The notes under the pieces: generated by a model
Told to the model about the DNA's origin: nothing
Seen by the model: only the letters and a program-made list of their open reading frames with translations
Database searches by the model: none
Shown: one piece after another, positions 1,791 through 7,002 of the stretch
Numbering within the stretch: position 1 is the stretch's first letter
How the letters are laid out: the number at the start of each line of letters is the position of its first letter
Position numbers and translations under genes: made by a program
From: Auanema rhodensis
Lineage: Eukaryota; Animalia; Nematoda
Length of the DNA stretch: 64,000 nt
Assembly: GCA_964057225.1 (NCBI GenBank)
Contig: OZ059899.1
Location: 16,120,001 to 16,184,000 of the forward strand
Direction: 5' to 3'

Positions 1791-4700
1791 ATGGCTGCTA
1801 ATAGGTTGTGTCTTTTTGATTATTTGTTTGTAAACTTTTTCTTTTTTTAGTTATAAACGTTTATGTGAAGAGCTAGGATTTGATTATGAAGAAATCAATC
1901 AGCTCAGGTAATTTAACAATATTTTGAATCTTTATATATATTTTGTTTTTTAGTAAACGTATAAAGTTTACCGAGGCTGGTGGGATCGAGCTCTGTGAGC
2001 CCACATCACCCACTTTTAACAGTGGGCCCTCATCATCAAGGGTTATTGAAGTAATAACCTTGGATGACAGTGATGAGTAAGCGATATTAAAAATTATAAC
2101 AATTAGTTTTTTCTTTTTAAGCGAATGGGATCCTGCTACCCCATCAACCAGTGGAGGACAAGTCGGATATGGAGCGGCATTCAACGATGTCTGTAAAATA
2201 GAGGTGCGATCTTTTATTTACATATCATTTCATAATATATCTTTTGAAACATGAAATTTTCTCTTGCTCCAATTGCATATTTTGAAAACATTTTGAAATT
2301 TATTTCTCTTTTTCAATTGCTCTCTCTCTCATCTTTACATTTCATCTCAATCTATATCTTTTTTCAAACAAATTGCAAGTATTTTGAAATTTACATATTC
2401 ATTCTTTTGAACAACATTCATTTTAAAATCTTTACATTTCATCTCACTATCTATCTATCTTTCCTCATCTATCTTTCTTTCAACCAATTTTGAATTCTTA
2501 CAAATTATAAATATTTCAAACATTTTGAACTAGTAAAATAATAAAACACAATCTTGACCTTTTCATTTATTTTTTAACATTAACAAATGTTTATAAAAGT
2601 TTTTTCAAAGTTGAAAAAAAAAAAAAAACTTTATATTTAAAAATCAAATGCCATTTATTTTTAAACATTAATAAAAATAATTTAAAGAAAAGTAAATTTA
2701 TAAAAAGTTATAAACAAAAATTATTTATATTTAAACTAAAAGCGTATAACCATTATAAAAAGTGTGTATTATAGTGGTCACACCGACGCATAAAACGAAC
2801 TGGTCGGTTCACCAACGTGGTCGTTAGATCGCTCACGTTCCCACATTTGGAAGCCATTGATGAGCCAATGCATGTTGTCATGCCGCGGCTATTTAATGAG
2901 TTTCTTGATCGGTGCCTTGCTGAAAGTGGTGTGCCAGATAAACAAAAAGCACTATTTTGTTTATCAATAGAGCACCCATCCTTTGAAAAGGGATCCATAT
3001 TTATGGATTTCCGTAGAAGAGAGCATTTGGATGGCGTTGCCATCATGAATGCCATCAGCAAGGTGCAGCAATCAAAGCGAGAGGCTGTAATTAGCCAGGC
3101 AATGAATATTGAAATGTATGTGTTTGATGAGAGACCAGTGCAGCCAAGCCTGATGCCTGGTGAAGGTAGAGTTGGTTTCTATTTTGATGCCGAACTCAAA
3201 ATACCTGGCACAATTGAAAACACTGACACTCATTGCCTGGCTAGAGCAGCAGTTGTGGGAATGTGGAGAGCCGATGAAGAGGCAGCAGAAGATGTTGTTG
3301 AGAAGCGGAGGATTCAAAATCTTCGTCGCAACTACATCTTGTTGCCAAATCAACCACATCATATCAATTTATTGAATAGGTGTGGTATTTCTGTACATTT
3401 ACCAAATTATAATTTGAACCATTTAAATATTATTGCAAGTTGTAATACAGACTATAAGTTTGTAGTATACGCTAGGCCACCTGGACAGCGTATGTACGCT
3501 ATTCAGCGTATCTTTAATGAAACGGCTAGCAAAGTGGTAACACTAGGCTACCGAAATAATCATTATGACTGTATTACAACTTGTAGTAGATCACAGATTT
3601 TTGATGGTATTATATGCCAACACTGTAAATTATCTTACAAAACAGTGTTGCATAGATGTAAAGCCAAGTGTAAGAAATGCCACACCTTAAAATGTAATTC
3701 GATGGAAAATGTGGTTGAGAGTAGCATAAGATGTGATAGTTGTAGAGTTTTGTTCAAAACTCGTCAATGCTTTGACAGGCATATTAGAAAAACATGTCGA
3801 ATGTTTAAGGTAATTTAAAAAATATATATAAAATTTAACATGACTAAATTCAGACATGTGAAAACTGTGATCATTATCACAGGGTGCGTGCTGATAGACC
3901 GCACAATTGCAATGAGAAATTTTGCAAAAAGTGTGGGCAAACAAAGCCTGAAGATCACTCTTGTTGTTGGGTACCACCTAACGACAAGAAGAAGGATCAG
4001 TTAAAAAAGAGGCAAGAGAAATACAAGGTTTGTATTTAACATCTTTACAAGTGTAATACTTACTTGTTTAAGATTATATTCTATGACTTTGAAACGGTTG
4101 TGTTAAAAAGCGGTACAAATGTTCATGAATATGCAGATGAACAATGGCCCAATATGGTTGTGTATAATAAATTTTGTGAAAGTTGTATAGACGCCAATTC
4201 ATGCGAAAAATGCACAACCAAGGAGGGCCATTTTGGGTACCAACAAGGTGATAGTGAATGGTCTGTAACAGATCGTTTCCTTGATTGGTTACTCAACTCT
4301 GTTGAGAATGATAATGCAATTTTGATTGCGCATAATGGTTCACGCTTTGACATACATTTCTTGGTGTCTAGGCTGATAAACCGTGGAATATATCCTGATC
4401 CAATTTTAAATGGGACCAAGATTATAAGCATGGTTGTCAAGCCTTTAAGAGGTCAAAAATTTAATCATTTATATTTTAAAGATAGTTATTTATTAGTGCC
4501 TTTACCCCTATCAGCGTTACCCAAGGCATTTGGTGTACCTGATATGAGTAAAGGACAGTTTCCTTACCTCTATAATCACCCAATAAATTATGGCAAAGTG
4601 TTGCCATCTTTACCACCAAAACAGTACTATTGTACTGCTAGAATGAAAGCAGAAGACCTAGCTTCATTCGATATTTGGTATGAAGAGCGTAATCAAAGAG

Positions 4701-7002
4701 CGTTTGATTTTGATGAAGAGCTTTTGGAATATTGTAGGACAGATGTCCGTATTTTAACCAACTGTATGAAAGTTTACATGAAGTTGGCAACCGCCACCAC
4801 TGGCTGGAACCCTGTCATACAATGTATGACATTTGCCAGTTTCTCTTTATTCCAGGCAAGTTTTTTAAAATACAAGCATTTTCAAAACTATTATATTACA
4901 GTTGAAAATGAACCACATTAAAGAGAACCAAGTGGGTATTCTGCCCGAGACTGGTTATTATGCCGGTCAAAAGCAGAGTATAATAGCCATAAAGTATATA
5001 AAATGGCTAGAACAAGGACTGGGCCACCCATTAATGCATAAGCTTAATGGTGGCGAATTTGCAGTGAGAGTAGATGGCCATCGCTATCTACTCGATGCTT
5101 ATGACCCCGTTGCCAATCATGGCTATGAGGTGAGTAATTTGTAATAAATGTAAAAAGTGCAAATTTTTGTAGCTTAATGGTTGCATTTACCATGGTTGCC
5201 CCCAGTGCACCAACAAGAGCGCTATAGCACCAGGCAGAAATGGTGAAACAATGGAAGAGGTAATTGTGACATTTTTAATCATTTTAATTTTTAAAATTTA
5301 GGTTTATGATAAAACCATGAAAAGGCTTGAAGCAATTCAAAGCCAAGGCATTAGTGTTACCACAGTGTGGGAGCACGAAATTAATGCTCAAATTTCGGCC
5401 AATGAAGAAATGGCGAAATTTATGCGTGAAACAAATGTTGTTACACGCTTGGCACCTAGAGATGCCTTTACCGGTGGCCGCACCCAGACATATAAGCTTT
5501 TGGCACAAGCTTCGGATAGATACTCGCTCGAGTATGTGGACTTTTGTTCACTATATCCATATGTCACAGCCTTTGATGCCTATTACCCTGTAGGTAATCC
5601 CAAAGTTATTACTGAGGGTTTCAAAAGCTTTGAGACATGTTGCCCATACAAGGGGCTAGTAAAATGTGACGTGCTTGCACCCACAAATTTGCTGTACCCT
5701 GTATTAGGCACACGTATTGGCGGTAAACTTATTTTTACAAACTGCCGCACTTGTGCAGTCAAAAGTAAAAATGTAACATGTGAGCACCAGAATGATGTAA
5801 ATGCTAGAAAGCTGCATCTAACTGTGACACATGTTGAGCTCGAGTGTGCCATACAACGTGGCTATAAAGTGCTTAATGTGCATGAGGTGTGGCACTGGGA
5901 AGAATGGCAACAAGGCGGCCTGTTTAAAGAATTTGTACAAAAGTACATCAAAATTAAACAAGAGGCGTCGGGCTGGCCAAAGCCAAACATGACAGAGGAA
6001 GAAAAGGTATGTTTTAATAAAAGTATCACATTAAATAGAATTTTACAGGTGATTTATCTCCAAGAGCACGAGGAGAACACTGGTGTTGCTCTGGAGAGCA
6101 ATAAAATTGAGAAGAATGCTGCCATGCGTAGCATTGCCAAACTGCAGCTAAATAGGTTTGTAAACTTTTTAAAAACAATACATTACAAATTTGCTTATAG
6201 TGTCTGGGGTAAAATGGGTCAAAGGCCAGATAAAGCCCAAACCAAGATTATTGGTGTTGAGGACCCAGAAATTGGTAGGATCATTACTGATCCTGCAAGG
6301 GAACTCACTGGGTTCAAAATTGTGGATAATGTTGCGTACTGCACAACAGTACCAGAGGATTCACATTTGGCACCACCGCCTTTTACAAATGTAGCTATTG
6401 CGGCCTATACAACCGCTCATGCAAGGCTACTATTGTATAAGGCAATGGAGAAAATTGGAAAGAATTTGGTGTATACAGGTAATTTTATACTTTGTATTCA
6501 ATTTAAACTTACATTATTTAGACACGGATTCTCTAATTTATCAAAGGTGCCTGGATGAGCCAGATCCAATTGAGGATATGAAGGGTGAATGGTTAGGTAA
6601 ACTAACCTCTGAAATACCCGATGGTTGGTCAATGACCAAGTTTGTGTCACCAGCGGCAAAAGTTTATAGTTATAAACTTGTAAATGCAGCTGGTGATGTA
6701 AAATATGTAACAAAGGCAAAGGGAGTGGTAAGTACGAGCTTTGACTTTTCAAATAATTTTATAATTTTCAGACGTTGGACCACACGGCAGCGTCAGTGGT
6801 AAACTTTGAAAGTATGGAGCGACTGGTTCGCGGACTCGTTATGGATGGAGAAAAATTGGTTTTAAAAACCAATACGACATTGTTAAAGAGGCAACTCGGT
6901 GCCATATCCACAATGGATATGACAAAAAGTACTAAAGTCGTAATGGATAAACTTTGTTATCTTCAAGATTATAGTACTTTACCCTACGGTTATTGTGTTT
7001 AA
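1791..7002 (+). CDS. polB: Protein-primed family B DNA polymerase (pPolB), 14 exons, ~1369 aa: N-terminal/terminal-protein region, OTU-like protease, Cys-rich region, 3'-5' exonuclease, Vsr-like insertion, polymerase
   Basis: Exons 1791-1804, 1851-1907, 1954-2076, 2122-2203, 2775-3809, 3854-4027, 4073-4855, 4902-5129, 5173-5259, 5302-6006, 6049-6155, 6201-6478, 6522-6727, 6772-7002 join into one open frame (4110 nt). Motifs YDFET, AHNGSRFD, YCRTDV, YVDFCSLYP, KLQLNSVWGK, YTDTDS, KAKGV. First four exons are less certain. Confidence 0.92.

Follow-up and report, generated by a model that had tools for sequence, protein, structure and literature searches.

Introns in the polymerase gene of a nematode Polinton

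The window analyzed here, i.e. the whole stretch of 64,000 nucleotides at positions 16,120,001 to 16,184,000 of contig OZ059899.1 (assembly GCA_964057225.1) of the nematode Auanema rhodensis, harbors a complete, intact-looking Polinton/Maverick element of 15,707 bp. It is situated at 533-16239 (all coordinates are those of the window), has the termini AGT...ACT and is bordered on either side by CTCGGC (527-532 and 16240-16245), a target duplication of 6 bp. Polinton hallmarks found in it are long terminal inverted repeats (TIRs), the 6-bp duplication, a protein-primed family B polymerase (pPolB), a retrovirus-type integrase and a double-jelly-roll major capsid protein (MCP). The polymerase gene, on the plus strand at 1791-7002, is interrupted by 13 introns. 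With these removed it reads in a single frame from the ATG at 1791 to the TAA at 7002, over approximately 1,370 codons and with no internal stop.

Twelve of the 13 introns are 42-46 nt long and one measures 571 nt, and all have GT-AG ends except for one with GC-AG (see the table below). An original prediction, made from the sequence alone, had described exactly this set, and all of it was found in the sequence. The same holds for its observation that introns 10 and 11 are in frame and free of stops. Its statement that introns split catalytic motifs agrees with the homologue alignment, in which motif B (KxxxNSxWGK) is interrupted by intron 11 and motif C (YxDTDS) by intron 12. The exons upstream of exon 4 are needed because a start codon is required and no methionine occurs between codon 1 and codon 125 of the spliced polymerase; similarity to a Caenorhabditis nigoni protein starts at residue 86, in exon 4. 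The spliced N-terminal extension also contains (at 2040-2130, plus strand) a hydrophobic-then-acidic stretch, which we take to resemble a SUMO-interacting motif.

Homologous proteins were used to evaluate the junctions, by means of a profile built from 44 of 83 homologues (those of 1,150-1,500 amino acids) and a polymerase model with an X at every junction. The spliced polymerase matched this profile as one domain over residues 117-1368, with 1,063 bits. Homologues aligning through the introns had been named in the original prediction as speaking against splicing; instead, retention of intron 10 or 11 gave an insertion of 14 or 15 residues exactly there, at a cost of 18 or 20 bits. Junctions 7-13, including those in motifs B and C, align to the homologues without insertion, while junctions 5 and 6 fall in variable stretches. 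Two pieces of the polymerase matched PF03175 (E 4e-22 and 3e-17). Insertions and deletions among the C. nigoni isoforms did not coincide with junctions of the polymerase gene, and the motif Q-x-G-x-G, present in 5 of 44 homologue N-termini, is too rare there to support exon 4.

Splice signals were scored with a matrix trained solely on 11 host introns. Eleven strong acceptors were found on the sense strand of the polymerase gene and three on the antisense strand, as compared to a mean of 2.35 and a maximum of 8 in 100 local shuffles. Three sequencing runs labeled as the same species, guessed to be RNA and all from one study (X1, X2 and X3), were furthermore compared with positions 2775-7002. 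Two X1 contigs, at least 99% identical to the gene, leave out exactly 42, 45 and 44 nt, each stretch bounded by GT..AG and corresponding to introns 10, 11 and 13, and the first two of these are both absent from a single contig. In X2, four out of five pieces derive from diverged copies. The loose end of one X2 contig agrees with the end of exon 8 in 14 of 16 letters, versus 5 of 16 for the end of intron 8, and continues into AT-rich sequence at intron 9. Such a contig, with intron 8 removed and intron 9 seemingly kept, fits better with partly spliced RNA than with an intron-free DNA copy. Nothing in X3 matched this range, and with most of the gene without cover that run is uninformative either way. 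The RNA junctions called for in the original prediction were thus found for introns 10, 11 and 13 in probable-RNA contigs, while the other ten junctions of the present copy are uncovered.

Support consequently differs between introns. Introns 10, 11 and 13 are joined in contigs and intron 8 indirectly so in a diverged copy; introns 4-9 and 12 have homology, splice signals and frame in their favor, and introns 1-3 are predicted from splice signals, reading frame and the requirement for a start. As for U2-type features, GT/GC-AG ends and fitting lengths were found for 13 of 13, and removal, in contigs guessed to be RNA, for 3 of 13. Taken together, the polymerase introns are supported as host-type spliceosomal introns.

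Their likeness to host introns extends to size, as 8 of the 11 introns in the host gene cct-5 are 43-46 nt long, and to junction contexts, which are of the ordinary AG|G type. GC content, on the other hand, is 0.19 in the element introns versus 0.31 in those of the host (P 2e-4). No sequence kinship was detected among the 12 short introns: the best pair scored 21 as compared to 22.7 in shuffles, and 81% of the 200 shuffles attained the score of that pair. An introner burst was accordingly rejected as their origin, and a comparison directed at exon duplication gave no support for that origin either. Being GC-poorer than host introns and mutually unrelated, they are neither fresh host copies nor the product of an introner burst.

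Four proteins were retrieved as short relatives of the polymerase. In P0212 and P0214 (56-57% identical), the match ends at residue 1097/1098 and the protein itself 3-5 codons later, which we infer to reflect an intron at the intron-10 position read as the end of an open reading frame (ORF). P0213, an Auanema gene model, begins just past junction 7 and has no insertion at any of junctions 8-11, and the more distant P0215 reads through both 10 and 11. As to the mapping of intron positions over nematode pPolBs that the original prediction had suggested, the intron-10 position appears to be common to P0212 and P0214. Given a position common to relatives, mutual unrelatedness and AT-richness, the best explanation would be that the introns are long-standing residents of the element and no fresh damage.

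Inner genes, right-end unit and genomic setting

At the level of coding DNA the element is asymmetric, with a spliced polymerase, a right-end unit predicted to be spliced, and intronless inner ORFs. No strong intron candidates were found in the nine inner ORFs (6,250 nt) with the host-trained splice matrix, and if introns were distributed evenly over coding bases, finding all 13 in the polymerase versus zero in the inner ORFs would have P ~6e-6. The right-end unit, on the minus strand, holds four strong intron candidates, two of which yield a gene of 166 codons, with the others at 13904-13951 and 14984-15035. The claim that splicing is confined to the two inward-facing terminal units is hence backed by intron candidates, homology and the uneven spread. 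The accompanying claim of intronless MCP, penton, ATPase, protease and integrase genes stands insofar as these coding ORFs are unbroken; it is limited to coding DNA, and the penton is a probable assignment. Adenovirus late mRNAs carry a spliced leader (PMC7851563), so intronless inner ORFs need not mean unspliced mRNAs. Among the acceptors upstream of inner starts, those of the ATPase (7.4) and the ORF at 11756 (7.6) equal the 95th percentile of background, and the rest fall below it (two starts are off by 2-3 bases). The ATPase acceptor, at 11072 on the plus strand and 22 nt upstream of the start codon, is possibly a trans-splice or leader site.

The inner ORFs are tightly packed, adjoining or overlapping with gaps of 0, 5, 12, -4 and -44 nt. 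A structure model of the MCP (predicted local distance difference test, pLDDT, 92) has its best matches in the capsids of PBCV-1, Sputnik and mavirus (E ~1e-15), while the MCP profile found no match in the PDB by sequence. Over its whole length the protein aligns with relatives of 432-450 amino acids, and relatives of the MCP occur in Auanema, Caenorhabditis and Pristionchus. For the penton candidate no Pfam match was obtained, and its single-sequence model (pLDDT 41) is too poor for fold comparison. The right-end protein likewise has no Pfam family, and its Atlas matches are unnamed and weak. It starts with what we presume to be a motif resembling a cyclin destruction box (R-x-x-L-x-x-x-x-N) and carries several S/T-P sites and cysteine pairs, and could possibly be a cell-cycle-timed regulator.

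Features of the element. Introns 1-13 are those of the polymerase gene; X1 is one of the three sequencing runs.
Feature	Position	Strand	Remarks
Left terminal inverted repeat	533-1594	+	~1 kb
Intron 1	1805 (or 1808, same frame)-1850	+	predicted
Intron 2	1908-1953	+	46 nt, predicted
Intron 3	2077-2121	+	45 nt, lowest splice score, predicted
Intron 4	2204-2774	+	571 nt; similarity to C. nigoni protein begins in exon 4 and crosses it
Intron 5	3810-3853	+	44 nt
Intron 6	4028-4072	+	45 nt, directly upstream of Exo I motif
Intron 7	4856-4901	+	46 nt, GC-AG
Intron 8	5130-5172	+	43 nt, within Vsr-like insert; absent from contig of diverged copy
Intron 9	5260-5301	+	42 nt
Intron 10	6007-6048	+	42 nt, in frame, stop-free; joined in X1; position common to P0212 and P0214
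Intron 11	6156-6200	+	45 nt, in frame, stop-free; splits motif B; joined in X1
Intron 12	6479-6521	+	43 nt, splits motif C
Intron 13	6728-6771	+	44 nt, joined in X1
Major capsid protein, double jelly roll	7141-8475	-	444 aa, unbroken ORF
Small basic glycine-rich ORF	8476-8868	-	adjoins MCP start; likely core protein
Adenovirus-type maturation protease	8980-9435	+	unbroken ORF; PF00770 E 0.0015, below curated cut-off
C2H2 zinc-finger ORF	9689-10153	+	unbroken
Probable minor capsid protein (penton)	10159-11016	-	unbroken ORF; named from position and size only
Packaging-type P-loop ATPase	11096-11743	+	unbroken ORF; matches below curated cut-offs, size and position fit
Two unnamed overlapping ORFs	11756-12064, 12061-12777	+	
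Retrovirus-type integrase with chromodomain	12734-13801	+	unbroken ORF; PF00665 and chromodomain above cut-off
Predicted three-exon gene, right end	14100-14684	-	introns 14542-14581 and 14280-14323; 166 aa, Cys-rich
Right terminal inverted repeat	15302-16239	-	~1 kb

The outer 216 nt of the TIRs are identical left versus right, and 21 mismatches occur over 922 aligned bases; such near-identical ends suggest a recent insertion. Within the TIRs, a 55-nt repeat (1186-1408 and 15494-15599) differs in copy number between left and right. A comparison with a viral contig collection gave no match. The insertion site is one unit of a 177-bp tandem tRNA-Leu array, and the 5' part of a tRNA-Leu gene is interrupted (451-532, 16240-16255). 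A chromodomain integrase together with a tRNA target may indicate targeted insertion; no report of tRNA-targeted insertion of such elements was found in a literature search. The array is broken once more, by ~650 nt (17512-18160) with a 181-codon minus-strand ORF inside, and almost at the corresponding point of the tRNA unit, and a solitary tRNA-Leu is located at 40466-40549. Downstream of the element, cct-5 encodes a protein of 542 residues with 94% identity to one of Auanema sp. JU1783, as compared to 88% for Necator and 86% for Caenorhabditis, and these identities place the host among the clade V rhabditid nematodes. Other host genes within 19900-59300 are presumably a nuclear receptor, a UDP-glucose pyrophosphorylase-like gene and a phosphatidylinositol-transfer-like fragment.

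Polymerase lineage and explanations for the introns

A midpoint-rooted tree was made of 61 homologues, using their last 800 residues. The polymerase falls with proteins of C. nigoni and C. brenneri (support 1.0), the next to join being those of Heterodera and Globodera (0.96). The outer branches are in many cases full-length proteins taken from assembly collections and likely represent unbroken ORFs, which suggests that the introns were gained on the nematode side. A profile of 22 homologues matched E. coli Vsr structures (E 7e-5) at positions equal to residues 828-903 of the polymerase, which thereby contains a Vsr-like insert. No ORF long enough for a fusogen (at least 730 amino acids) was found between 7000 and 15400.

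As to why the introns are there, we give slightly better than even odds (a probability of roughly 0.55) to the polymerase lineage having gained and kept 13 host-sized introns because they aid expression of the element while it is integrated in the chromosome. Transcription by host RNA polymerase II would start at both terminal repeats and proceed inward, and the host spliceosome would remove the introns, three of which are seen joined and ten of which we presume to be. The polymerase of ~1,370 residues would then carry out protein-primed replication of the element. For the two terminal units, the sole template would be one chromosomal copy prone to silencing, and in these, introns could raise mRNA output and blunt small-RNA silencing, as they do in C. 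elegans. Expression of the inner ORFs (capsid, protease, ATPase and integrase) would follow later, from replicated copies or via untranslated leaders, and for that reason would gain nothing from coding introns. In C. elegans, introns are described to raise mRNA 10- to 17-fold, and their removal can trigger germline silencing (PMC12055998); introns also limit nuclear RNA interference (PMC5554785). Since they both boost mRNA and limit silencing in that nematode, there would be reason to keep them in the genes that fire first. By analogy, it is plausible that introns help expression or evade silencing in the element, and there may be an early (spliced) versus late (intronless) split in expression, as had been proposed from the outset.

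A benefit to expression nevertheless has several points to contend with. According to the C. elegans work, most of the increase is already obtained with the first intron, and thirteen exceed the stated need (PMC12055998). The integrase and zinc-finger genes are intronless though not obviously late. The suggested gain of the introns on the nematode side comes from a midpoint-rooted tree of 61 of the 83 homologues, the 22 shorter matches being left out. Lastly, the sequencing runs are only guessed to be RNA and come from one study, with single contigs at a depth of 2.4-4.2 that cover 3 of the 13 junctions of the present copy.

Neutral accumulation or module history explains the intron pattern nearly as well as an expression benefit. 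The introns would then be real but without special benefit, having built up in a long, loose gene or arrived with a polymerase module swapped in from an intron-rich lineage, while the compact inner genes were unable to take them or had another history. We regard this as quite possible, if less probable than a benefit to expression: polymerase replacement is documented in nematode Polintons (PMC10748475), inner ORFs do adjoin or overlap, the junction contexts are no different from those of host introns, and most introns lie outside the catalytic motifs. Overlap, however, constrains the ends of genes but leaves the interior of a 1.3-kb ORF free, splicing is predicted for the unrelated right-end unit as well, and the nearest named relatives of polymerase and MCP alike are found in Auanema and Caenorhabditis, giving no pointer to a recent swap.

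The original prediction also raised a splicing gate on replication, whereby some tissues would retain introns 10 and 11 (or others) and make an inactive polymerase, with active enzyme confined to places of complete splicing. That these two introns are in frame and stop-free, with one of them in motif B, that there is one GC donor, and that one X2 contig seemingly keeps intron 9 would all suit a gate. Five of the 12 short introns have lengths that are multiples of three, though, which is near chance, and three of these five contain stops, so that in-frame introns are not over-represented. Introns 10 and 11 are moreover both gone in one X1 contig, their splice scores (15.4 and 12.4) fall inside the host range of 9-20, and the stop-free state of intron 10 is not conserved, as P0212 and P0214 end 3-5 codons past the position. 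We thus disfavor the gate and consider it improbable. Even less probable is a domestication of the polymerase by the host, with introns acquired once mobility had ceased; the host-like intron sizes and the several isoforms in C. nigoni gene models of the polymerase family would fit, but here a whole element is inserted in a tRNA array unit, with identical outer 216 nt, a target duplication and unbroken capsid and integrase ORFs, diverged copies are found under the same species label, and the intron GC differs from that of the host. Decay is a known pitfall, as most vertebrate Maverick loci are reported to be decayed, with insertions called introns by gene finders (PMC8097293). We give hardly any credence to the breaks being merely intron-like insertions in a dead copy, considering their uniform 42-46 nt, canonical ends, a frame restored 13 times, exact contig skips and a position common to relatives. 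At introns 10, 11 and 13 decay is contradicted unless X1 represents DNA of an intron-free copy.

A broader and rather doubtful proposal is that these elements constitute a third nematode Polinton family, with a Vsr polymerase and no fusogen, in Auanema, Caenorhabditis, Pristionchus and cyst nematodes, which ORF-based surveys would have scored as dead. Its terminal replication and regulatory genes would be host-structured so as to pass as germline "self", with the virion block kept intron-free for late expression, and such anti-silencing camouflage via intron gain might have evolved repeatedly across animals.

Comparison with known elements

Polinton core genes lack introns according to published descriptions of the elements of nematodes (10.1101/2022.07.12.499685), vertebrates (PMC8097293) and flagellates. 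With 13 introns in its pPolB the present element departs from this description, which is a described habit and not a defining trait. Our literature search, with subscription journals and Repbase outside its coverage, found no report of spliceosomal introns in an animal Polinton polymerase. Polinton censuses equate "intact" with unbroken ORFs, whereby spliced and possibly active elements are dropped or labeled pseudogenes. In addition, intron-dense and intron-free genes within one 16-kb element offer a natural contrast in a tractable animal group, which makes testable both the origin and persistence of new introns and the role of introns in the escape of foreign DNA from germline small-RNA silencing.

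The closest known counterparts are the nematode Polintons with pPolB1 or pPolB2 described by Jeong et al. in 2023, which are alike in their inverted ends, 6-bp duplication, size (~16 kb) and nematode host, and in having genes for pPolB, integrase and capsid as well as for an ATPase and a protease, these last two putative in the present element (PMC10748475). Their polymerases, however, are unbroken ORFs, and the survey, which used C. briggsae queries, demanded at least 900 amino acids. As the longest polymerase ORF in the unspliced copy here is 418 codons, a survey of that kind would overlook the present lineage or count it as decayed. A fusogen is listed in most of the searched rows of their Supplementary Table 1, and the one Auanema row among these is an intact, fusogen-bearing element, whereas no ORF of fitting length occurs here (PMC10748475). 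The Vsr insert is, in the account given there, found only in the marine Trissonchulus latispiculum, whose elements likewise lack a fusogen, as opposed to the terrestrial Auanema host of the present element (PMC10748475).

In the Caenorhabditis plicata Maverick of Widen et al., introns are likewise found in the TIR-adjacent terminal region, next to intronless capsid and integrase genes, but there they belong to host-derived cargo and the polymerase is called intronless (10.1101/2022.07.12.499685). Vertebrate Mavericks (Barreat and Katzourakis 2021, PMC8097293) have the same core genes and the same kind of ends and duplication. The eupolintoviral elements of dinoflagellates, which are Polinton-like, also contain spliceosomal introns; these are introners, copies of intron-generating transposons, and mostly post-integration gains, in contrast to the 12 mutually unrelated short introns here (PMC12166617). 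Finally, adenovirus similarly has spliced units read inward from both ends, with the polymerase expressed from an early unit (PMC7851563). Its introns lie mostly in untranslated leaders and its late mRNAs are spliced too, whereas in the Auanema element it is the coding sequence that is interrupted, like that of a cellular gene.

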